From a virus: a stretch of 64,000 bases of DNA. The notes under the pieces were generated by a model. It was not told where the DNA came from. It was given only the letters and a program-made list of their open reading frames with translations, and ran no database searches. Made by a program: the position numbers and the translations under genes. The stretch spans positions 13,258-77,257 of IMG/VR virus record IMGVR_UViG_3300017605_000154; one strand, given 5' to 3'. Positions 22,188 through 63,483 of the stretch are shown one piece after another. The number at the start of each line of letters is the position of its first letter. Within the stretch, counting starts at the first letter, position 1.

Positions 22188-22257
22188 TTCCCCTCGACGG
22201 GGGAATAAAAGGGGCCGGGTTGCGTTTTCTCTCCTGTTGGCGCTTACCCGGCCCCTT
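22188..22257. terminator. Double hairpin at the convergence of the two genome arms (likely bidirectional terminator)
   Basis: TTCCCCT/GGGGGAA stem, then 12-bp AAGGGGCCGGGT/ACCCGGCCCCTT. Confidence 0.7.
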
Positions 22258-22297
22258 GTATTAATTCAGTCGTTGGCTGGTCTGGTGGTATGTGGCA

Positions 22298-43017: not shown

Positions 43018-43605
43018 GAGCTACGCCTACCTCAGAGATGGGGGGAGACGCTAACACCTCTGATCCCACCAATTTTGCCACGTATCCCTCGGCGTAGCTC
43101 AATGGGATAGTCCGACCGACCCCTACGAATACGTCGTAGGTTACTCTTGACTACCCCATTCAACTACGGTAGTTCTAGTGTGCGCGGCCTACGGTCATAC
43201 GATGAGTACCAGAAATTTACTCATCTAGCTACGAGTTTGCCGTGAATGATTCCTGGCGCATCATCCATCTTTCCTGTAGTTTGCCACTCTACAGGCACAC
43301 ACTAGTTCTGAAAACTACGGGATAGTGGACTATCGCAGACTTCGTCCACTATCGGGTGATTGGTGAGAGTCTTTGCATTGACCCTTTGTTCTGCGACCAA
43401 AATTGAGCTACGTTGGTTAGCAGACTTGCACATCGTCTCGCTCATGTATCTACTTATTACCGGACGATCGACCCCCGTAGCTCAATGAGCTAGAAGACAT
43501 TCCTCGGTTATGGACTTACCCTATTTGGAAGGCAGTAGCCATAACTCTGTACTCGTACATCTAGCTCATTCAACTACGCAAAGTTTCAACTTTCCCCCTT
43601 GCGCG
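43018..43605 (-). ncRNA. Candidate large structured non-coding RNA / hairpin array with a duplicated module
   Basis: No convincing ORF; CGTAGTTGAATG and CATTGAGCTACG each occur twice, with nested inverted repeats; own promoter. Confidence 0.55.
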
Positions 43606-43616
43606 ATCCTCTGAGG

Positions 43617-43645
43617 AGCGTACTCCCCAGGGCCGCTCCTGTCAA
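43617..43645 (-). promoter_or_regulatory. Sigma-70-like promoter TTGACA-N17-TACGCT
   Basis: Perfect -35, 17-nt spacer, TAnnnT -10, pointing into the ncRNA region. Confidence 0.7.
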
Positions 43646-43983: not shown

Positions 43984-44049
43984 GTTTCCTCCTGAGTGTT
44001 ATCTAACTGTATGCATCGCTCACCTTCCTTTCGTTAGCCTCAAGAATGA

Positions 44050-44070
44050 GGGCCGGGATATACCCGGCCC
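44050..44070 (-). terminator. Hairpin terminator
   Basis: GGGCCGGG/CCCGGCCC after the 44096 stop. Confidence 0.55.
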
Positions 44071-44095
44071 CCAAACTTCAAGCTACCTTCGAAAG

Positions 44096-54648: not shown

Positions 54649-54899
54649 ATGTACCTTTCTGCGTCCTTTCGAAGTGAACTACCTTCGGGCCACCGATGCC
54701 AAGTGCCACCACAATCGGGGCATCGAAAGAACAAACCGCCGTCGTACACTCCCCGAATCTCAACCATGATCTTGCGGCTGAAATATCGTGGCGGATCGCC
54801 CTCCTTCCATTCGCCATACATGCCTTCGCGCAAGTACGCGACTGGAATCTCTCCGGCGCGTAAGTCGCTATTGCAGTGTGGACACCGATCTTCGTCCAT
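54645..54899 (-). CDS. Zinc-ribbon hypothetical protein
   Basis: CPHC...GVYDGGLFFRCPDC..WHRW. Confidence 0.65.
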   Translation of the reverse strand: MDEDRCPHCNSDLRAGEIPVAYLREGMYGEWKEGDPPRYFSRKIMVEIRGVYDGGLFFRCPDCGGTWHRWPEGSSLRKDAERYM

Positions 54900-55151
54900 C
54901 TAGTTCCTCCTGCTTCGATTCTGCGCATTCTTCTGAATTGCAGCGATTTGCTCCGGAGTCGGCGGCATTTTAACCGCGTCCTCTTGAAGCTCCGCGCAGA
55001 AGATGCACAGAAAGTCTGCGTCGTTATCTTGTGCGACTTTCATACCGCTAACCGAAACCCACACAACGCTGTCACACTCGACGCAACGGTCTTGCGTTGA
55101 ATCCTCTGTGTGATGCCACGACTCTGGCACACAAACAACGAACGATCCCAT
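54900..55151 (-). CDS. Cys-rich hypothetical protein
   Basis: AAAGGAGG RBS; CVEC..CIFC. Confidence 0.6.
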   Translation of the reverse strand: MGSFVVCVPESWHHTEDSTQDRCVECDSVVWVSVSGMKVAQDNDADFLCIFCAELQEDAVKMPPTPEQIAAIQKNAQNRSRRN

Positions 55152-55173
55152 TTTCCTCCTTTCTTGTCTAGAC

Positions 55174-55203
55174 TTAGGAAGCAGCCCGAAGGCTGCAACC
55201 TAA
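55174..55203 (-). repeat. Conserved stem-loop element, copy 1 (UUAGGUU-stem-UUCG-stem-UUCCUAA)
   Basis: Plus strand TTAGGAA GCAGCC CGAA GGCTGC AACCTAA. Confidence 0.75.
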
Positions 55204-55309
55204 AGCTAGCTAACCGCTACTCCGATCAGGATTAGAAGTCCGACGATTAGTGCTGCCCAAACAGCTAGGCAGATAATCACCATTACTGTGTATATCGTGA
55301 CTACCACGA

Positions 55310-55720
55310 TCACGCAGTGAGAATGGGTTCGTCGCAGACCCACTCCACAATTTCCTCCGTTCGCTCAGGCCGCTCGACATACGAAGCAGGGACTACCTTC
55401 GTTCCGACGACCACGCGCTTGCACACCGCCTCACGATCGATCGTGTACTCGATACGCACGCACTCGCTGAACTTCTTGATAAGGTCGAAGTATGTGCCTG
55501 CGTGAATCTTCTCGGCCTTACCGAGAACCTTCGCAGCCTTTGCAAGCTTCTCGCGGGCAGTGAGAGGATTCTGCACATCGCTGTAACGAGTGTCATCGTG
55601 CAACCAAACATTGAGCTTCATCACTGGCTCATACTCAATCGGAAGCTCGATGTTCTGTTCGATGAAATCCGCCATTGCGCGCAAGCCTTCGACCAGTTCG
55701 CGCTGATGCTCATACTTCAT
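55310..55720 (-). CDS. Conserved actinophage-like hypothetical protein
   Basis: GLRAMADFIE...REAVCKRVVVGT...EIVEWVC.EPIL. Confidence 0.7.
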   Translation of the reverse strand: MKYEHQRELVEGLRAMADFIEQNIELPIEYEPVMKLNVWLHDDTRYSDVQNPLTAREKLAKAAKVLGKAEKIHAGTYFDLIKKFSECVRIEYTIDREAVCKRVVVGTKVVPASYVERPERTEEIVEWVCDEPILTA

Positions 55721-56222
55721 CTTCTTCCTCCCTTAGCCGATGGTGTCGAGAAGTTCCTGCGTTGCAGTGTGCTGCTTTCTTGCTTCTGTCTTCTCGATAA
55801 ACGTCGTGTGTGTGCCCGTGATGATTGTGGCAGCCTCATCGCGCCAATCCTTCACGATTTGAATCAGGAGGCTGTACTGGTCTGCCGTTAGCGGCGGCAG
55901 ATGAACTTTTGCGCCCATTATGATGCAGGCTCCTTTCGGTTGCACTTTTCGCACTTCCCGCTGAGCTTCACATCGTGCATGCAGTAAAGCTCGTCGTACG
56001 AAATCTTCGTGTGCTGCCACCACCATGCAGTCGACTCCGATACGAACCTCCCGTTATGCCAGATTGCCTTAAGTGTCATCTCGCGTGTCTCGCTCTCGCC
56101 ACTCCAAGACGTACTCACGAAGAGTGCTAGTCGCTGTTCCACGGTAAACGTAGTGGAATGCCTTTATGTCCTCGTCATAGGACAAGTCGAGAACTTGGCG
56201 ATCCCGAACACTGCCGTTCTCG

Positions 56223-56459
56223 TTAACCTTGAGAACCGCTCTCGACATCAGATACATAGCGCGACTCCTTTCTGCCGAGAAGTAGATCGAACATGCGAAA
56301 GACTTGCTCACCTTCGCACTTGTAATCATCCCAGAGCAACGCTGTGGTGTCGTACCAATCTCCATCGCTACTCGAAACGATGAAGCCGGTAATCACAAGC
56401 AAGTTTTTCTCGTACTCCGAGATTTCATACTCCATGCCGGATTCCATCACGATGGGCAT
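56223..56459 (-). CDS. Hypothetical protein
   Basis: AAAGGAGGTGA RBS. Confidence 0.55.
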   Translation of the reverse strand: MPIVMESGMEYEISEYEKNLLVITGFIVSSSDGDWYDTTALLWDDYKCEGEQVFRMFDLLLGRKESRYVSDVESGSQG

Positions 56460-56484
56460 ACACTCACCTCCTTTCGATCTAGAG

Positions 56485-56518
56485 TTAGGAAGTACCCGAT
56501 TTCTCGGGTACAACCTAA
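56485..56518 (-). repeat. Conserved stem-loop element, copy 2 (GAAA loop)
   Basis: Plus strand TTAGGAA GTACCCGA TTTC TCGGGTAC AACCTAA. Confidence 0.75.
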
Positions 56519-56520
56519 CG

Positions 56521-56727
56521 CTAGCTATGGCAGTAGCCATCCTTCTCGATGCCGAGGAAGATATTCGGCAGGTACACACCGAGGTAATCTCCACCGGAGA
56601 GATTGAGTTCCTCGGTATCCTCCCACAAACCTTGCGCCAAGACATTCTGCTGCAATGCCTCAAGCTGTGCAGGAGTCATGTTTGCGAGCGTACCCGCAGT
56701 CATCGTGATCGGAACGTGAGGCTTCAT
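56521..56727 (-). CDS. Hypothetical protein
   Basis: IFLGIEKDGYCHS C-terminal motif. Confidence 0.6.
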   Translation of the reverse strand: MKPHVPITMTAGTLANMTPAQLEALQQNVLAQGLWEDTEELNLSGGDYLGVYLPNIFLGIEKDGYCHS

Positions 56728-57254
56728 GCTACCTTCTTTCTACGTCGCAGGTCTTTCACCTTAGGATGATCTGCGAAGAACTTCTGCAGTCTCCTCTCGA
56801 AGCGTTCCTCCTGCGTGGACTTAGTCCAGTAGTACGAGTCGTGAAATACGGGACTCTGAACTATGCCAACTACACGCGCATGCTGAACAAGCAAACCCTT
56901 ACGAACAGAATCGTCGTGCCATCTGTACGTGTCTGTGTATCTCTTGACCGTGCCCCAGACTTCCATCTTCACGATCACGAAATCAGCGCCGGGAGCCCAC
57001 TCCTCACAATCTTTCACAGTTTTCAGGCAATGGATACCGGGACACCAGTTCCGATAGCGTGGATCGTCCCAGCGGTAGTCCCCGAAAGCACCATCGACAT
57101 GCTTTACGTGATATTCGTTCTCCCTCCACACGTTGTGTCGCATTGGACTGTAAAATCTCCCGCGCTTCAGTTGCAGCACCTTGTAGACAGTGAGCGGCTT
57201 ATCTTCTGGGATCGTCCGTGTGCTTGTCTGTTCCCACTCACGAAAGATGCACAT
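56724..57254 (-). CDS. Hypothetical protein (VYK...SP...CxPGIH domain)
   Basis: VYKVL...FYSP...WCPGIHC...EVWG. Confidence 0.6.
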   Translation of the reverse strand: MCIFREWEQTSTRTIPEDKPLTVYKVLQLKRGRFYSPMRHNVWRENEYHVKHVDGAFGDYRWDDPRYRNWCPGIHCLKTVKDCEEWAPGADFVIVKMEVWGTVKRYTDTYRWHDDSVRKGLLVQHARVVGIVQSPVFHDSYYWTKSTQEERFERRLQKFFADHPKVKDLRRRKKVA

Positions 57255-57257
57255 TGT

Positions 57258-57440
57258 CTACCACAACTCGATTCGTTCGATCTTCGAATCCGTGTCCTTG
57301 TTTGCGACTAGCTGCTCGTTCGCGATGACTTCGGCCTGCCCGAAATTCAAAGCCCACCACGTTGCCGTCCACTTGTGATCGATGCGGCCTTCGTCATTAC
57401 GCACGACGAAAGTCACTTCGAACTTCGTCAGTTCCTCCAT
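57258..57440 (-). CDS. Hypothetical protein
   Basis: TAATG overlap with the methyltransferase stop. Confidence 0.5.
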   Translation of the reverse strand: MEELTKFEVTFVVRNDEGRIDHKWTATWWALNFGQAEVIANEQLVANKDTDSKIERIELW

Positions 57441-58096
57441 TACCGTCCCTTCCTGTGGAAGATTCGCACGTAGTCGTGAATTCCCGGCCACTGCGGAATG
57501 TACTCATGCTCGACTTCGTCATACAGCCGATGCAGGAGACGCCAGAACTGACGGTCAGCATTGCAACCGCCAGAATCTTCTCCGACGTAGCAGAGGAAAT
57601 CTCCACGGTGGTAGCCGAGTGCGTATGTTGCCATATCTGCTTCATATGGCGGCCAGCACAAAAAGAGATTCCATTCACGACTGTAGCTCTTGAGGACGTG
57701 TGGCGTACCCTGCAGAACTTCCGTCCATGCAGTAGCTCCCCGGTGATACCAACTTTTATTGGGGTGCTTTCCACCTGCCTCTTGATACTCGTCTAGCTCC
57801 TCTTCACTCCAGTCACTTCCATCAGGCGGGTATTGATCGTATGCGTCGATCGTCACTCCAAGCTTTCGGAGTTCATACGCCCAATATCCTGTGCCTGCGC
57901 CGATTTCCACCAGCGGTCCGTACTTTGCGATGCATTCCAACGCCGCCACAGTGGGGATCGCCCATGCATACTTCTTCACGAAGTCTTCCCGCTGCCTGTA
58001 GCTGTGCATGGAATCGTACGGATCACGCCCGACAATCTCTCTTTCCCAAAGCTCGTCGTAGTGGAAATCAAGCTCGCCGGTGTACTCTAGTTCCAC
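57440..58096 (-). CDS. Class I SAM-dependent methyltransferase-like protein
   Basis: YAWAIPT, LVEIGAGTGYW motif I, DAYD, LFLCWPPY, YVGE. Confidence 0.8.
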   Translation of the reverse strand: MELEYTGELDFHYDELWEREIVGRDPYDSMHSYRQREDFVKKYAWAIPTVAALECIAKYGPLVEIGAGTGYWAYELRKLGVTIDAYDQYPPDGSDWSEEELDEYQEAGGKHPNKSWYHRGATAWTEVLQGTPHVLKSYSREWNLFLCWPPYEADMATYALGYHRGDFLCYVGEDSGGCNADRQFWRLLHRLYDEVEHEYIPQWPGIHDYVRIFHRKGR

Positions 58097-58108
58097 TTGT
58101 TCTCCTTT

Positions 58109-58297
58109 CTAGAGTGACAGTGAAAGAGCCATGTGAATTCTGTCACCCGGCTCAGTCAACGGAGACACGATGTACTGCTCCTTATCGTGCCCAATCCACC
58201 GATGCGCTTGACGCTTTGCATCCTCGCGGTCATGCGCAAAGCAGAAAAAATGGATGTTTCCCATCTCCACCATGAAAAGAATGTCGTACCTCGTCAC
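58109..58297 (-). CDS. Hypothetical protein
   Basis: AAAGGAGGGA RBS. Confidence 0.55.
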   Translation of the reverse strand: MTRYDILFMVEMGNIHFFCFAHDREDAKRQAHRWIGHDKEQYIVSPLTEPGDRIHMALSLSL

Positions 58298-58309
58298 GCT
58301 CCCTCCTTT

Positions 58310-58795
58310 CTAGAGAAGTTCTGCGTCGAAGCGTCCACCGCACTTCGAGCAATGGTAACGGCTCAGCAACGCCGGCCGCAATCTGTAGCGCGTGAACGAA
58401 TTTCCGCAGTCCACGCAATAGACGCGGTAGTTCGGTTGCGCCTGCGAATCCACTCCGCTAGCGCATCTTTCCGGCTTTGCACCAACCTCGACACACTTTG
58501 CCTTCCACACATAATCGTGCCCATGTCCTGAGCCGACAAGTGCGTGTGCAATTTCGTGCCGAATCGTGTCTTCGATTTCTGCGCGTCCGATGTGGTCGAA
58601 GTTCTTCGAGAACGCGATGATCTTCTGAGTGTGATTACACACTCCAAGCCTTCGCTGCGCACGATCCCACTGGAATTTCCAGCCCTGTGCAACAAGACCG
58701 TACTCTTCCATTAGTTCCCATGCGCGTGATTCCGTCCAGAAGAAGTCTTGATCTTGTGGATCAAGTTCGTCCATGCGCAAAGACACAATCTCCAT
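58310..58795 (-). CDS. SprT-like zinc metalloprotease
   Basis: RRLGVC, TIRHEIAHALV..GHGHD.VWK, C-terminal CxxC..CxxC. Confidence 0.85.
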   Translation of the reverse strand: MEIVSLRMDELDPQDQDFFWTESRAWELMEEYGLVAQGWKFQWDRAQRRLGVCNHTQKIIAFSKNFDHIGRAEIEDTIRHEIAHALVGSGHGHDYVWKAKCVEVGAKPERCASGVDSQAQPNYRVYCVDCGNSFTRYRLRPALLSRYHCSKCGGRFDAELL

Positions 58796-58805
58796 GTCCC
58801 TCCCT

Positions 58806-59126
58806 TCAACCGATTTCGCGCTTCCACTCACCGTCAACTTTCACTTCGATCGTCGTGCAACCTGAATCCCAAGTTGCCCATGAAAGCACGGTGCTTTGCA
58901 CTGCGCACCACTCGTCATTCAAGAGCCAACCGCCGAGATAGACGATATCGTCATCGTCCATGCAACGGAAGCGAGTCTTTTCGGTCGGGTAATCTTCAAG
59001 AGCTGGCGCATCGTCTAGGTAGTTCGAAACTTCTACGTTCGACCACTCAACGCCGATGCAGTTCAGCTCTTGATAATCACGGTCGACCTGCGCGACTATC
59101 TTTCCTTTGGGAGCCGAAAGATCCAT
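58806..59126 (-). CDS. Hypothetical protein
   Basis: FRCMDDDDIVYLGG...DSGCTTIE. Confidence 0.6.
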   Translation of the reverse strand: MDLSAPKGKIVAQVDRDYQELNCIGVEWSNVEVSNYLDDAPALEDYPTEKTRFRCMDDDDIVYLGGWLLNDEWCAVQSTVLSWATWDSGCTTIEVKVDGEWKREIG

Positions 59127-59138
59127 TTCCCTCCCTTC

Positions 59139-59438
59139 TTAGCTGCATGTGGGACAAGTGCAGAGCATGTCCTCCGTGAGTACATCTTCGGGGCGACAGC
59201 GGATTGAATACTTCGGCCGCTTGATGGAATCTCCCGTAGCAGGATTACGCCACGAAACACCACCGCTCATCGACAGCCCGTTGTACATGTATCCCGCAAC
59301 GGTAATTGCGCCGCCGATTGTCTCTGCAGGAACAAGCCGATCTTCCAACACTTTCTGACCGGACTTGATCGTGAGCCGAAGTCTCGCGCTGTGCTTCACG
59401 CGCAATCCATTCTCGACAAACAACGTGTACTCTTGCAT
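59139..59438 (-). CDS. Hypothetical protein
   Basis: Strong RBS. Confidence 0.55.
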   Translation of the reverse strand: MQEYTLFVENGLRVKHSARLRLTIKSGQKVLEDRLVPAETIGGAITVAGYMYNGLSMSGGVSWRNPATGDSIKRPKYSIRCRPEDVLTEDMLCTCPTCS

Positions 59439-59454
59439 CTTCCCTCCTTTCTAT

Positions 59455-59528
59455 CGTTAGCTCGGTGGTGCATAGGCTTAGCAACTAGCAGGATTTGCAC
59501 CCATAACCTATGCACCACCCAGCTAACG
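59455..59528 (-). promoter_or_regulatory. Long intergenic hairpin (8+13 bp), possible RNase III site or terminator
   Basis: CGTTAGCT-C-GGTGGTGCATAGG / CCTATGCACCACC-C-AGCTAACG. Confidence 0.6.
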
Positions 59529-60071
59529 CTGGGCCTTAAAGTTACCCCTGCTTGCGAGGATTGCGAGAACCCGGCCGCGTGTACTTCTTGCCGCTGTTGT
59601 TGTGCTTCTCCAAGTGCTCGTCGTGCGCCTTCGCGCGGCGCGTGAGCTTCGCCATCGTCTTGCGGCCCTTCGTCATTTCGTTCTCCCTTCGAGCTTGATC
59701 TTTCCGTTGCTGCACACTGTGGCCGACGTCAGGATGAAAGTCTTTCCGTCGCCCGTGACAGTCGCGTGGATTCCACTCTGCGTACAGTGGACTTTGGGAT
59801 GCCGCTTCTTGTATGCATACGACGGCTGCACATGCGAAGCAGCAAAGAATGCAAATCCTGCGATAACCACGCAGGCCATTGCACCTTCGATCTTGCTCTT
59901 CACCACTTCCTCCTCATCCGGCTTTCGATTGCCTCTTTTGCGTCGGGACTGATCGCGAATGCGAGCTTGAGAAGCTTCGCAGCTATCCAGAGGCGAAACA
60001 GACGCCACTTGGCGCGTACCCAAATTCGGGTGACGTTCTTGTAGTACCTTCGGTTGTAGTCACGCAGGAGA

Positions 60072-60314
60072 TTATGCATTTCTCTCTTCCTTCGTGACGC
60101 GCAGAGTCTTGTTGTAGTACGGCTCTGCGATTTGACGCGGGCCGGTACCGGAGATTCGAAACGCGCAAGTCTCGCGGCGACCGTTCACGTTGATCGAAGA
60201 AATCTCATACACCCCATCGACAAGTTCCGGCGTATCCTCGTCGTCATACATTCCGACGCCAAGTGCCGATCCCTTGATATGTGCGCGAACGAGATTCTCT
60301 TGCACAAGAAACAT
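60072..60314 (-). CDS. Hypothetical protein
   Basis: GAAGGGAGGGA RBS. Confidence 0.5.
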   Translation of the reverse strand: MFLVQENLVRAHIKGSALGVGMYDDEDTPELVDGVYEISSINVNGRRETCAFRISGTGPRQIAEPYYNKTLRVTKEERNA

Positions 60315-60327
60315 CGCTTCCCTCCCT

Positions 60328-60654
60328 TCACACGAAGTCGGCGCGTCGGCTTGTGTAGTACTTGAGCCACTGCGCATTTACGGAATCTGTCACGTCGATG
60401 CCGTCGAGCGTTACCGACACCAAATCCCACGTCGCTGCGATGTTTCGAGTCATCGCAATGCAATCCGCGATGTACCTCGCAGGCGAGTAGGCTTGGCGCA
60501 TTTTTTCGCGCCACTCCGGATCGGCAATGTCATCGAAGTCTCTGCCGTGGTAGTACACCGGCATTTCTTCGACAACATTCGGCGGGTCGTTGAAGTACGA
60601 CTCATCCCAATGGCAGTTCCGTAGTTCCGCCCGCAGCATGACAGCCTTCTGCAT
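60328..60654 (-). CDS. Hypothetical protein
   Basis: GAAGGGAGGGA RBS. Confidence 0.6.
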   Translation of the reverse strand: MQKAVMLRAELRNCHWDESYFNDPPNVVEEMPVYYHGRDFDDIADPEWREKMRQAYSPARYIADCIAMTRNIAATWDLVSVTLDGIDVTDSVNAQWLKYYTSRRADFV

Positions 60655-60678
60655 TTTCCCTCCCTTCGTGCAGTAGTT

Positions 60679-60727
60679 TTAGGAATGCAGGCGCGGTGTA
60701 TTTCTGCGCTTGCGCCTGCAAACCTAA
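60679..60727 (-). repeat. Conserved stem-loop element, copy 3
   Basis: Plus strand TTAGGAA TGCAGGCGC...GCGCCTGCA AACCTAA. Confidence 0.75.
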
Positions 60728-60729
60728 CG

Positions 60730-61107
60730 CTACTCCGCTTTTCTTTCCATCGGGTACGTGTGGAAGAAACCGTGCCGATCTTCCTCGTCCCACTTCTTCT
60801 TGCTCTCTTCCATGCAGATGCGATTCAGTTCCTCGGTTGCGAGCTTGAAGCTCTCGCTGTAATCTGCGGTGTCTTCGTAGCCACTCGCGATTGTGGGCAC
60901 CGCAGCCCAATCGAAAGTCTCTGCGTCGCCGAGAATGTGGAAGTGCCCGTAGTTCTCGGAAATCGCAGTCGGCCATGCTTCGATCAACACGGCCACCGCG
61001 CGTTCGTTCGGCACCGACAGAACATCGCCATCTTTGATGTTCTCGATGCACTGCGAGGCATCGTACGCTTCGCCGCTGTCCTCGAAAATGTGAATCTTTG
61101 GCGTCAT
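60730..61107 (-). CDS. Conserved phage hypothetical protein
   Basis: FEDSGEAYDASQC.ENIKDGDVL.VPNE..V..L..AWP.A....G.FH. Confidence 0.65.
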   Translation of the reverse strand: MTPKIHIFEDSGEAYDASQCIENIKDGDVLSVPNERAVAVLIEAWPTAISENYGHFHILGDAETFDWAAVPTIASGYEDTADYSESFKLATEELNRICMEESKKKWDEEDRHGFFHTYPMERKAE

Positions 61108-61258
61108 GCCGCCACCGCCTTGTAGTCTTGTGTGTTGTCCGGAATCTGGTACTCGGTGCAGAACCGCAGCATTGCATCGCGCTTCGAATCCGCGCGGTAC
61201 GCTGCAACCGGAGCGCCCCAAGCCTGCCCTGCATGGATGCGGTAAATGCCGAAAATCA

Positions 61259-61501
61259 TCAGCACTCCTCGACGTGGATTGTCACCAGCATCGGCGTTCC
61301 ATCCATGCGCAGGCCGATGTATCTGCGACCGTTCTTGATGCTCGGCGTGAAGTTTGTGATATCCACGCGCGGATTGCCCCGAAACGTTGCGTCAACGAGC
61401 CTTTCGATATCGCTCGCGACTCTGTCCGGGTTCTGGCTTACCGCAACCTTCGGCGCGGTTTCCGACTCCGGAGCGGCGAAGCGCCAACCATCTGCGTTCA
61501 T
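61259..61501 (-). CDS. Hypothetical protein
   Basis: GAAGGGAGGGA RBS. Confidence 0.55.
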   Translation of the reverse strand: MNADGWRFAAPESETAPKVAVSQNPDRVASDIERLVDATFRGNPRVDITNFTPSIKNGRRYIGLRMDGTPMLVTIHVEEC

Positions 61502-61860
61502 CTTCCCTCCCTTCGAAGTTTGTAGAGCTCACGGAAATTCGCGTTTGGCTTTCGCCGGCCACTATCTCTACCGCCGGCGCAAAGTTGCATGGAATGCAGC
61601 GGAATTTCCGAAGATTATTGCACAGTTTAGTTGCATGCGTCAAGTCAGGAAACGCATGCTGTCTGGGCTGCAAACGCCGTATATAGGGGCGGGGGGTATC
61701 CCCGCCTGGACGCTTGGCTCAATCCCTGCAGACATGCGAGATTCGGCCAAGTGCCCATAGTTTGTGACAGCCGGATTTCTTGACGAATCCGCATGAACAC
61801 AGGGATTCGCGGGGGAGATATACCCGGCAAAATCGGACATCGTAACAATTTCTAGTTCTT

Positions 61861-61900
61861 GTAGTAGTAGTATAAGTAGTAGGTAGTAGTACTTAGTATT
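61861..61900. repeat. AT-rich (AGT)n-like microsatellite in a divergent intergenic region
   Basis: GTAGTAGTAGTATAAGTAGTAGGTAGTAGTACTTAGTATT. Confidence 0.7.
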
Positions 61901-61934
61901 GTTCCTTGACTTTTCTGGCTCCGCTCGTTCTCTC

Positions 61935-61963
61935 TTGACACGCTATAACTATCTGACTAGACT
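61935..61963 (+). promoter_or_regulatory. Sigma-70-like promoter TTGACA-N17-TAGACT
   Basis: Near-consensus; upstream of the two plus-strand genes. Confidence 0.7.
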
Positions 61964-62013
61964 GACGAACTAGACAGTTACTTAGCGTCAATTTCCAAGG
62001 AAAGGATGCAAAT

Positions 62014-62274
62014 TTGCGTTGGTACGCAATAACTTGGATGGATAACGAGGGAAACGGAGTAAAACGCGAACTTTTGCGTCGGGAAGATACTCGGAAGATT
62101 TGGGAATTCATTCGCGGGCGCATAACCATGCGAAATATCCCAACCGACGCAGTCGGCGTATGGTTCTGGGAAGCGATGCCCGAAGAAACTTGGGATGATC
62201 GCTTCGACCAAGAACGTGACGCATCGCTGCATGCCGTCGAAGTTCCAGTGCAGAAGGATTTCTTCAACTTGTGA
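62014..62274 (+). CDS. Hypothetical protein
   Basis: GAAAGGA RBS, promoter, GTGA overlap with next gene. Confidence 0.6.
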   Translation: MRWYAITWMDNEGNGVKRELLRREDTRKIWEFIRGRITMRNIPTDAVGVWFWEAMPEETWDDRFDQERDASLHAVEVPVQKDFFNL

Positions 62275-62489
62275 AACTTCTAATTTACTGGTACAGCGAC
62301 GGAGATTTACGAACCCGGAAGTTTCTACGTCGGGAACTTATCGAAACCCCGCATGAAATCGGGGATTTCGTGATTGCATCCATGACCGAAGGTGCTATCT
62401 GGAAGCACCTTTCGACGTGGAAAGTTACCGAAGCAAAATTCGAAGAGCAACTTAGGAAGCCTCCGGCAGATTTCCCGGAGGCAACCTAA
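62271..62489 (+). CDS. Hypothetical protein
   Basis: Translationally coupled to 62014..62274. Confidence 0.55.
   Translation: MKLLIYWYSDGDLRTRKFLRRELIETPHEIGDFVIASMTEGAIWKHLSTWKVTEAKFEEQLRKPPADFPEAT
62452..62489 (-). repeat. Conserved stem-loop element, copy 4
   Basis: Plus strand TTAGGAA GCCTCCGG CAGATTTC CCGGAGGC AACCTAA. Confidence 0.75.
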
Positions 62490-62809
62490 ACCGCTACTTC
62501 TGCGAAGCTTCGACCTTCTCCGCAGCATGCAGCATGACCCAGCCGACGTTAGTCATCTTCGGCTGTGCCGATGCCTTGATGCACAGAACTAGTGAACCCA
62601 AAGTCATTTCGTCACCCCCTTTCCCGGAAGTCTTTTGAATGGAAATCAGCTACGCAACATTCTGCGTAGCACTAGTCGGTTGAGGCAGAACAACAGTCGC
62701 AACGGCTGTGGGGAGAAGTACCAACCCCGCAACCCGTTCGTCGCGGCTTGCATGTCTTGAATCTCGGCGGAAGAGAAGATGCAATTCTCCCGCAACAGAT
62801 CGCCCTGCA

Positions 62810-63028
62810 CTACCAGATCCAATCGCCGACGATGAAGCCGTTGACGTCGAATCTCCCGATGCACCGCCCGCCATCCTCTTCGATGTTGAGGAGCATCGTA
62901 CCGTCCTCATCCATTTCGAAGGTGAGCGTTGCGTCACTCTTCTTCCAGAGCTGGATTGCATCCGCAGCAAGCGAAACTTGCTTGTCGGTAGGCTGCGGCT
63001 TGCCTTGTGTGTTGGCGGTGATAGGCAC
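62810..63028 (-). CDS. Hypothetical protein
   Basis: AAGGAG RBS. Confidence 0.5.
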   Translation of the reverse strand: MPITANTQGKPQPTDKQVSLAADAIQLWKKSDATLTFEMDEDGTMLLNIEEDGGRCIGRFDVNGFIVGDWIW

Positions 63029-63053
63029 GTTCGACTCCTTCTGCGTGAAAGAT

Positions 63054-63263
63054 TCACGCGGTCACGACACACTGTGCTGAGACGTTCCAGCGCCGATGCG
63101 ATTCTGTGGCACCGCGATACGCGATTTCGAAGCAATCGCGGCATACCATGAAGTACCGGAATTGCACGTCATCCACGACGACGTACTTCGGGAACCCTTC
63201 GAGCGAATCTACCGGCGCGCAGTTCTCGCAGAATGCGCACTCTGTGTTGCTCGGCTCTGTCAC
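63054..63263 (-). CDS. Cys-rich hypothetical protein
   Basis: AAAGGGGGTGA RBS; CAFC..CRDC. Confidence 0.5.
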   Translation of the reverse strand: MTEPSNTECAFCENCAPVDSLEGFPKYVVVDDVQFRYFMVCRDCFEIAYRGATESHRRWNVSAQCVVTA

Positions 63264-63483
63264 TTTGACTCACCCCCTTTCATCGTTTTGGAAAGGAAAA
63301 ATTTTGGCTCAAGCTAAACCAAACCCCAGATTTCGCGCTATGGCGCTGCGCCATTGCTGCGGTAGGGAGAGGGCTGCACTCGGACGTACTGCGGCGCGGC
63401 GATCTATCGCCGGCGCAAAGTGTAGGCCTGGCGCAAAGTGTACGCCGGCACGAATCTGTAGGGCTCACGCAATGTCGCAAGCC

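Follow-up and report, generated by a model that had tools for sequence, protein, structure and literature searches.

What is the role of a hairpin that recurs four times behind stop codons in the early region of a phage, with the same short flanks but a different stem at each place? This question is raised by the viral record IMGVR_UViG_3300017605_000154, which is complete, 77,257 bp long, and carries 141-bp direct terminal repeats; its bases 13258-77257 were analysed here as one stretch of 64,000 nucleotides (the window, to which coordinates refer unless a contig is named). On the minus strand, which is the sense strand here, the flanks form an invariant clamp of 7+7 nt, UUAGGUU and UUCCUAA, around a copy-specific hairpin. 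Our analysis revealed that this clamp hairpin is a real, conserved, and covarying RNA element that is lineage-specific among phages, and its anatomy tentatively suggests a signal for mRNA processing and 3' stability.

A covarying RNA hairpin with an invariant clamp

A scan with the pattern TTAGGTT-N(10-40)-TTCCTAA resulted in exactly 4 matches in the window, all on the minus strand (55174-55203, 56485-56518, 60679-60727, and 62452-62489, termed copies 1 to 4), and thus recovered the four copies with invariant flanks that a preliminary description of this DNA had listed. In 100 dinucleotide-preserving shuffles, 0 matches were obtained, and the full 77,257-bp genome held none besides these 4. 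In a blind search for perfect hairpins with common flanks of 5+5 nt, the clamp hairpins also emerged as the sole multi-copy family, terminal repeat aside. As first read, the upper stems are perfectly paired and each is entirely different (GCAGCC, GUACCCGA, UGCAGGCGC, and GCCUCCGG in copies 1-4), the respective loops being UUCG, GAAA, 17 nt including GAAAU, and GAAAUCUG. A UAG stop codon lies upstream of the clamp, at a distance of 2 nt in copies 1-3 and 4 nt in copy 4, which agrees with the earlier reading. Since the genome uses its stop codons about equally (c. one-third each: TGA 38, TAG 36, TAA 35), the presence of UAG at 4/4 copies is unlikely to be due to chance. Copies 1-3 are followed by a strong Shine-Dalgarno sequence (SD) and ATG, with the SD beginning 6-7 nt past the helix base. 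The four copies, with open reading frames (ORFs) and minimum free energy (MFE) folds, read as follows.

Copy 1, 55168..55209, minus strand: CUAG / C / U-UUAGG / UU / GCAGCC-UUCG-GGCUGC / UU / CCUAA-G / U / CUAG; the basal helix holds the UAG stop (55206-55208) of a 45-aa membrane-like ORF; SD AGGAGG 7 nt past the base, ATG at 55151; MFE -25.0 kcal/mol, z -2.96.
Copy 2, 56479..56524, minus strand: CUAG / C / G-UUAGG / UU / GUACCCGA-GAAA-UCGGGUAC / UU / CCUAA-C / U / CUAG; the basal helix holds the UAG stop of a 68-aa ORF (56727..56521); SD 6 nt past the base, ATG at 56459; frame 0 reads UAG CGU UAG ... UAA CUC UAG; MFE -29.9, z -6.44.
Copy 3, 60672..60734, minus strand: AGUAG / CG / UUAGG / UU / UGCAGGCGC-17 nt loop-GCGCCUGCA / UU / CCUAA / AA / CUACU; the basal helix holds the UAG stop of a 125-aa ORF (61107..60730); SD GGGAGGG 6 nt past the base, ATG at 60654; MFE -33.8, z -4.77.
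Copy 4, 62442..62500, minus strand: GAAG-U-AGC-GGU-UUAGG / UU / GCCUCCGG-GAAAUCUG-CCGGAGGC / UU / CCUAA-GUU-GCU-CUUC, then GAAUUUUGCUU; located between a 37-aa ORF (62607..62494, UAG stop inside the helix) and convergent plus-strand genes; MFE -37.2, z -6.49.

Folding of each copy together with its flanks revealed one common three-tier structure. From the bottom, it consists of a basal helix with the stop codon, a small mismatch or loop, the invariant UUAGG/CCUAA helix, a 2x2 UU/UU loop, and the copy-specific stem. While the clamp helix, the UU/UU loop, and the upper stem had been recognized before, the basal helix containing the stop codon had been overlooked; it is formed by CUAG/CUAG in copies 1 and 2, AGUAG/CUACU in copy 3, and GAAG-U-AGC-GGU/GUU-GCU-CUUC in copy 4. 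Including the orthologs on two metagenome contigs described below (L075 and L076), all 6 known copies share this stack as their MFE structure, with 19, 21, 23, and 25 stacked steps in copies 1-4, 26 in L075, and 31 or more in L076 as predicted in silico, the latter two again with the 2x2 UU/UU loop and lower mismatches.

That the element functions as RNA on the sense strand, as had been proposed, is borne out by the strand on which it folds better: in 5/6 copies (the exception being copy 3), the sense-strand fold is 3-13 kcal/mol better than the antisense fold, because of G.U pairs, which are present in L075, L076, and copy 4, and of C(UUCG)G and GAAA loops. For covariation, an alignment and a covariance model (R1) were built from five copies, namely copies 1, 2, and 4 and those of L075 and L076, copy 3 being left out owing to a one-column misregister in the six-copy alignment. 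In the five-copy alignment, 100% of cells pair and both sides change in 5/13 pairs; only 0-2 of 500 shuffles attain the observed measures, and in slid registers the paired fraction drops to 25-62%. Copy 3, held out from the model, scored 17 bits only (E 0.47). Altogether, it is as RNA of the message strand that the element works, and only the clamp is under constraint at the level of primary sequence. A search for an antisense partner of the clamp arms resulted in none, both 7-mers being essentially confined to the elements, and no enrichment of CTAG or AGCTAG was seen.

Clamp-bearing relatives and distribution

Homologs of the 125-aa protein encoded upstream of copy 3 led to L075 and L076, in which this neighbouring protein is 71% and 44% identical to that of the window, respectively. 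The element of L075 is the ortholog of copy 4; its 24-nt stem-loop carries 5 changes, against 0 in either the clamp or the 70 nt that follow. Two of the changes keep the pairing of the stem, U-A to C-G (compensatory) and C-G to U.G. The DNA of L076 is barely alignable, and here the identical 7+7 nt surround a wholly different 11-bp stem with G.U pairs, while the last four codons and UAG UAG pair with downstream bases to form the basal helix. Thus, the clamp is present in related phages, down to a relative with a 44%-identical neighbour, and its specificity for a phage lineage was supported by its absence from the other collections searched (see below).

Both orthologs sit between a small sense gene and the same convergent pair (L075:5255-5835 and L076:8140-8651, both on the minus strand), which corresponds to two genes of the window without a Pfam match:

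62014..62274, plus strand: convergent gene, 86 aa.
62271..62489, plus strand: convergent gene, 72 aa.

The 86-aa gene was detected in both contigs by tblastn; the 72-aa gene is conserved in L075, and its L076 counterpart was recognized by position and C-terminal likeness only. In the window, the second gene runs through copy 4 antisense and uses the TAA of AACCTAA as its stop, while the L076 counterpart stops at the TAG of the TTAGG arm. The convergent genes display the motifs WY(A/T)(I/V)TW... and ...(K/R)(V/L)TEA(K/Q)F(E/K)(E/Q)(Q/E)L, and the pair has a promoter-like site of its own (TTGACA-17-TAGACT, 61935-61963). In the three phages, the module that accompanies the clamp comprises a 69-aa Cys-rich protein (sub-threshold PHD-finger hit only), a 72-aa protein, and the convergent genes, none with an assigned function; it is absent from the clamp-less loci searched. 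The right-end module of the window is encoded at 63263..63054, 63028..62810, 62607..62494, 62014..62274, and 62271..62489. Copy 4 marks the sole position conserved in all three phages, and no cistron follows it on that strand. At the copy-3 junction, between the genes for the 125-aa and a 108-aa protein, L076 carries a three-tier hairpin with UAG in its base that is clamp-less (L076:10370-10425; GUAGG/CCUGC base with the stop, CGC/GGC, and a 10-bp stem).

Four soil DNA runs were compared at the level of contigs only. Copies 3 and 4 are both covered by contigs of one of them (X2), which belong to a relative of roughly 80-95% identity; the loop of copy 4 has lost 1 nt there. One X2 contig (depth ~103) joins 56391 to 55174 and 55212 to 56528, and thus a copy-1-like hairpin stands at the copy-2 position, seen as contig joints only; the region around copy 1 (54803-55413) was not alignable. 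These joints could reflect hairpin exchange or turnover between junctions.

Beyond these relatives, megablast revealed no close relative among GenBank phages, and tblastn hits for the capsid stayed below 27% identity. IMG/VR relatives with 54-64% DNA-polymerase identity, one of which (G002) was examined whole, carry neither TTAGG..CCTAA hairpins nor any other hairpin family with common flanks. Pattern scans of IMG/VR resulted in 37 matches for TAGCNTTAGGTT..TTCCTAA and 10 for TTAGGTTGC..GCTTCCTAA (the GC..GC form), all of them stem-less and attributable to chance. The latter pattern had 57 matches in the GTDB genomes (~600 Gb bacterial), none with a usable stem; one, in an Arthrobacter metagenome-assembled genome, has a 2-nt loop and lacks the stop-codon context. 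At 18 IMG/VR loci with distant homologs of the 125-aa neighbour, many generic hairpins follow stop codons, with no clamp among them. The covariance model, the check that had been suggested for the element, added no further copy to those known when run over 617 kb of related loci. Rfam yielded 0 hits for the whole window at the gathering threshold; at E<=1, the region 54800-62800 revealed only an unrelated miRNA-model hit on the hairpin at 59.5 kb, which is spurious, and a weak RAGATH-25 hit elsewhere.

Operon context and proposed function

The phage is virulent-looking and of siphovirus type, and has genes for a portal, a major capsid protein, a tape-measure protein, a family-A DNA polymerase, a primase, and a helicase. 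It carries a sigma-70-like gene, and since a phage RNA polymerase was not found in the genome, transcription is presumably carried out by the host enzyme. On the minus strand, small genes with strong SDs follow one another from ~64 kb down to 22 kb. When ~30 early proteins were scanned against Pfam, no informative match was obtained save a SprT-like domain and weak zinc-ribbon hits. Three features of this strand belong to the context of the clamp hairpins:

61614..61643, minus strand: sigma-70-like promoter candidate, TTGACG-18-TGcAATAAT, 10/12 matches, a consensus match only.
59455..59528, minus strand: large intercistronic hairpin of 74 nt, in which GUUAGCU...AGCUAAC closes a ~15-bp helix; clamp-less.
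44035..44086, minus strand: divergent fifth hairpin, UAGCUU / G / AAG / UU / 11-bp GC stem / UU / CUU / G / AGGCUA.

The promoter candidate heads a long operon that holds copy 3, the clamp-less hairpin at 59455-59528, copy 2, and copy 1, and is divided by these four structures. Copy 4 closes a short right-end operon (63263..62494) and adjoins the two convergent genes, so it does not stand ahead of a ribosome-binding site (RBS). The clamp-less hairpin begins 14 nt past a UAA stop (MFE -46.9, z -4.90); its inner part, CAUAGGUU...AAGCCUAUG, is reminiscent of the clamp. The divergent hairpin at 44 kb (MFE -46.1, z -7.27) has a UAG stop in its basal helix and the same UU/UU loop, but another middle helix (AAG/CUU). 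Two further observations concern the regulatory regions. The 10-mer ACTTTGCGCC has exactly 3 occurrences on the minus strand (63408-63446 and 61576-61585), each continuing as GGCG(G/A)TAGA: two form an 18-bp tandem repeat upstream of the right-end operon, and the third follows the -10 of the main early promoter candidate, ~30 nt downstream. The box may be an operator or shared regulatory box. TAC/GTA triplets follow one another at 61861-61898 (AGTACTACTACCTACTACTTATACTACTACTAC on the minus strand), inside the divergent region of ~500 bp that separates the plus-strand gene pair from the main operon of the minus strand; the run has the look of repeated binding sites in a switch region.

Among the roles first considered, namely a protein site, an RNase signal, and a terminator, the anatomy favours processing and stability, because the hairpins offer about two turns of interrupted double-stranded RNA, copies 1-3 have no U-tract, the stop codon lies in the helix, and an RBS is adjacent. 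Moreover, a common function must fit both a convergent 3' end and an operon interior, which argues for 3'-end definition, protection, or processing rather than for control of a downstream start. The position ahead of an RBS noted earlier for three copies thus holds for copies 1-3, but not as a common function, since copy 4, the conserved site, has no downstream gene on that strand. Our leading suggestion, which we put forward tentatively, is that the elements are mRNA processing and 3'-stability signals probably cut by host RNase III, like the T7 early sites. The enzyme would be that of the host because neither an RNase III nor a domain that binds double-stranded RNA (dsRBD) was found to be encoded by the phage.

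The hairpins would then be cis-acting structures in early mRNAs made by the host RNA polymerase, and their interrupted helix of about two turns could serve as substrate for a double-strand-specific endonuclease, most plausibly host RNase III, the internal loop or mismatch restricting the cut to one strand. The upstream mRNA would be left with a protective 3' hairpin and would retain its stop codon; at copies 1-3, the downstream cistron would gain a short leader of its own with a free RBS, and at copy 4, two convergent transcripts would have their 3' ends set and protected by the hairpin. The enzyme, or a cofactor, would use the invariant clamp as its recognition box. That the stems differ may keep the copies from recombining, as longer identical repeats flanking essential genes would invite deletion. 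From the sequence, structure, covariation, strand bias, positions, and conservation observed we infer cleavage, the enzyme, and an effect on stability or expression.

This proposal agrees with what is described for such signals. An idealised RNase III substrate has 22 bp and cellular substrates generally ~20 bp or less, and internal loops or mismatches at the target lead to single-strand cleavage and thereby to mRNA-stabilising 3' hairpins (PMC3867540). The folds predicted here in silico, with 19 to 31 or more stacked steps and the UU/UU loop, agree with the coaxial helix of ~20-22 bp, often with an internal loop at the target site, of that account (PMC3867540). Regarding position, copies 1-3 lie between a stop and SD plus ATG of co-directional genes past a promoter-like site, and copy 4 lies at a 3' end. 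As the enzyme reads specific base-pair boxes (proximal and distal), one set of which suffices to specify a site (PMC1540722), an invariant helix is compatible with RNase III. Pairing into the coding sequence, which includes the stop codon and in L076 the last four codons, exceeds what a simple exonuclease block needs.

Several points weigh against this proposal. A distal box at a fixed distance is excluded for the UAG, whose spacing from the clamp varies (0/3, 2 or 4 nt), and copy 1 has only 16 base pairs plus mismatches. To our knowledge, 14 invariant nucleotides are not normally needed by RNase III, and since the hairpin at the copy-3 junction of L076 lacks the clamp, the clamp seems dispensable for the role of a junction hairpin. 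The absence of the clamp from the bacterial pattern scan is no less compatible with a reader encoded by the phage than with a host enzyme. A search for RNA runs that contain the sequence resulted in none listed.

The constancy of the clamp leads to a second possibility, which we regard as real though not probable, namely that it is the site for a sequence-specific RNA-binding protein, encoded by the phage or a lineage-specific host factor, which would read UUAGG-UU/UU-CCUAA on any stable hairpin and control mRNA fate, termination or antitermination, or translation at four early points. The 14 nt are invariant in four paralogous copies and among phages with 44-71% neighbour identity while everything else varies, the motif was not found in its GC..GC pattern form in ~600 Gb of bacterial genomes or in IMG/VR, and it travels with a small gene module in all three phages that is missing from the clamp-less loci searched. 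This co-inheritance, however, concerns three phages and one locus, the copy-3 junction of L076 does without the clamp, and no early protein has a recognisable RNA-binding domain: the candidates are unannotated small proteins or weak zinc-ribbon hits, and neither a dsRBD nor Ro60 was found in the phage. In a more specific and rather speculative version, the clamp would be the address label of a new phage RNA-protein system, in which a small early protein of the right-end module would bind it on any hairpin and, at four checkpoints of the early programme, switch decay, antitermination, or the formation of 3' ends; candidate binders would be, for example, the Cys-rich protein of 69 aa or a convergent-gene product.

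Copy 4 is also the copy best explained by termination, as it is located exactly between convergent genes and followed by GAAUUUUGCUU. If the elements were intrinsic terminators (attenuators) that are weak or helped by a factor and lack a canonical U-tract, the terminator hairpin would be the GC-rich upper stem, with UUCCUAA as a poor U-tract; copy 4 would end a unit, and copies 1-3 would grade transcription along the operon. UU directly follows every upper stem, the related hairpin at 44 kb is followed by UUCUUGA, and the high-GC contigs that carry relatives of the neighbouring protein resemble actinophages, as judged from sequence composition only. We nevertheless consider termination unlikely. 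An intrinsic terminator combines a GC-rich hairpin with an immediate U-rich tract of 7-9 nt, but UUCCUAA has 3 U in 7; the terminator scan called 0/4 copies, and only copy 4 has UUUU, 3 nt past the basal helix. Copies 1-3 have no U-tract and are located 6-7 nt before an RBS inside an operon, and the copy-4 ortholog of L076 lacks a U-run as well. The phage possesses canonical U-tract terminators elsewhere (22204-22263), and for termination, an invariant clamp and a basal helix that takes in the stop codon are both superfluous. Mycobacterial RNA polymerase was shown to need a U-tract (PMC3993855).

The location of the stop codon might point to translation instead. Here, the hairpins would act as insulators or couplers that hold the stop codon and the next RBS side by side, tune re-initiation, and supply back-up stops in several frames. 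The UAG lies in the basal helix, the SD of copies 1-3 is 6-7 nt from the helix base, and these copies read UAG CNU UAG, an in-frame tandem stop; further stop triplets are present in both clamp arms on both strands, where the convergent gene uses one. Such a role would fit copies 1-3 only, since no further cistron follows copy 4 or its orthologs on that strand, and we hold it to be quite improbable. The in-frame second stop two codons on in copies 1-3 and the downstream genes with their own SD and ATG led us to reject stop-codon readthrough or ribosomal bypass.

An element acting as DNA (an attC-like site or cassette boundary, a mobile hairpin resembling repetitive extragenic palindromes (REP) or miniature inverted-repeat elements, or a replication signal) appears very improbable: the position right after ORFs with short conserved inverted cores and a variable centre is superficially attC-like, and the X2 hairpin aligned to copy 1 at the copy-2 position hints at exchange, as judged from contig joints only, but neither a tyrosine recombinase nor a Y1/HUH transposase was found in the complete genome, the GTDB pattern scan revealed no copies in bacterial genomes, the G.U pairs and RNA tetraloops are strand-specific, and the core polarity TTAGG...CCTAA is the reverse of attC. 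The flanks of copies 3 and 4 (AGUAG/CUACU, GAAG.../...CUUC) form a helix and not a target-site duplication, because their complementarity is inverted and not direct. Integron attC sites have consensus cores RYYYAAC...GTTRRRY, fold as single-stranded DNA, and work with an integron integrase; attC was rejected on the opposite core polarity and the lack of a Phage_integrase-family domain in the complete genome. REP and REPIN sequences are many near-identical GTAG-headed palindromes in a host chromosome together with a Y1 transposase (RAYT), while the stems here are all different, no Y1_Tnp was found, and the GTDB matches are stem-less. N4-like hairpin promoters were also discarded, as the phage has a sigma-like gene and siphovirus-type tape-measure, portal, and capsid genes and showed no giant virion RNA polymerase.

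Phage early operons are full of unassigned genes, and apart from T7, T4, and lambda, there has been little study of how expression is divided among them. In this uncultured soil phage lineage, selection has kept a compact design in which the 14-nt clamp is fixed, the stop codon lies within the helix, and the top varies freely; the element is a candidate new RNA motif for Rfam-type catalogues. Should processing by an RNase III-type enzyme be true, the T7 strategy would extend to an unrelated phage group and a recognition helix would be defined for a non-model RNase III; should the address label be true, it would point to a new regulator. On either reading, the hairpin could serve as a small portable insulator or processing part.

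Comparison with known systems

Within the same genome, the clamp hairpins can be compared to an RNA array at 43018-43645. Both have conserved basal pairing boxes (GUAG...CUAC type) and variable inserts, but the array boxes are CGUAG-UUGAAUG / CAUUGAG-CUACG and form a gene-free leader array, whereas the clamp hairpins stand singly at stops. The 44-kb hairpin has UAGC, the UU/UU loop, and a GAG-CUA 3' side as common ground with both sets, and judging from this sequence likeness it may link the two families. Its flanks (GUAGCUUGAAG...CUUGAGGCUAAC) resemble the array boxes.

Hairpins without U-tails are reportedly also a matter of actinophage phiC31, for whose early region Ingham, Hunter & Smith (1995, as cited in PMC3993855), to go by the title, described Rho-independent terminators without poly-U tails. 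By that title only, they are like the clamp hairpins in being GC-rich, U-tail-less, and located in an early region, but 3/4 clamp copies sit in an operon just before an RBS.

Cluster K mycobacteriophages carry a 13-bp start-associated sequence (SAS) at start codons, joined in its extended form (ESAS) to imperfect inverted repeats, conserved over 17 bp and separated by a 4-13 bp spacer (Pope et al. 2011, PMC3203893), for which the authors found little support for an mRNA hairpin (PMC3203893). The clamp hairpins share with SAS and ESAS short conserved repeats in the non-structural genome half, short intergenic gaps, and one orientation, and with ESAS an inverted-repeat pair with a variable spacer; neither has an assigned function. 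They differ from ESAS in that 7+7 nt are conserved with 16-35 nt between them and that no common box covers the start codons. Furthermore, the clamp hairpins have copy-specific, perfectly paired arms with compensatory change and are anchored to the upstream stop, and copy 4 has no downstream start.

The closest likeness is to the RNase III signals R0.3-R1.3 of early T7 mRNA (Dunn & Studier 1983, to follow the summary in PMC3867540); the early polycistronic precursor of ~7000 nt is cut at five such signals (PMC3867540). In both phages, several intercistronic hairpins of about two helical turns, broken by an internal loop and placed between a stop and the next RBS, divide a long early transcript of the host polymerase, and the expected product would be an upstream mRNA with a protective 3' hairpin. 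This likeness is drawn from predicted folds; there is no sequence relationship, and the host of our phage is probably not an enterobacterium. Unlike the T7 signals, the elements here have an invariant 14-nt clamp, a copy-specific upper stem, and a stop codon in the helix, and one copy serves convergent genes. The clamp motif matches no Rfam family, canonical terminator, attC, REP, or ESAS; the clamp hairpins would form a new type within the known class of phage intercistronic processing and stability hairpins.

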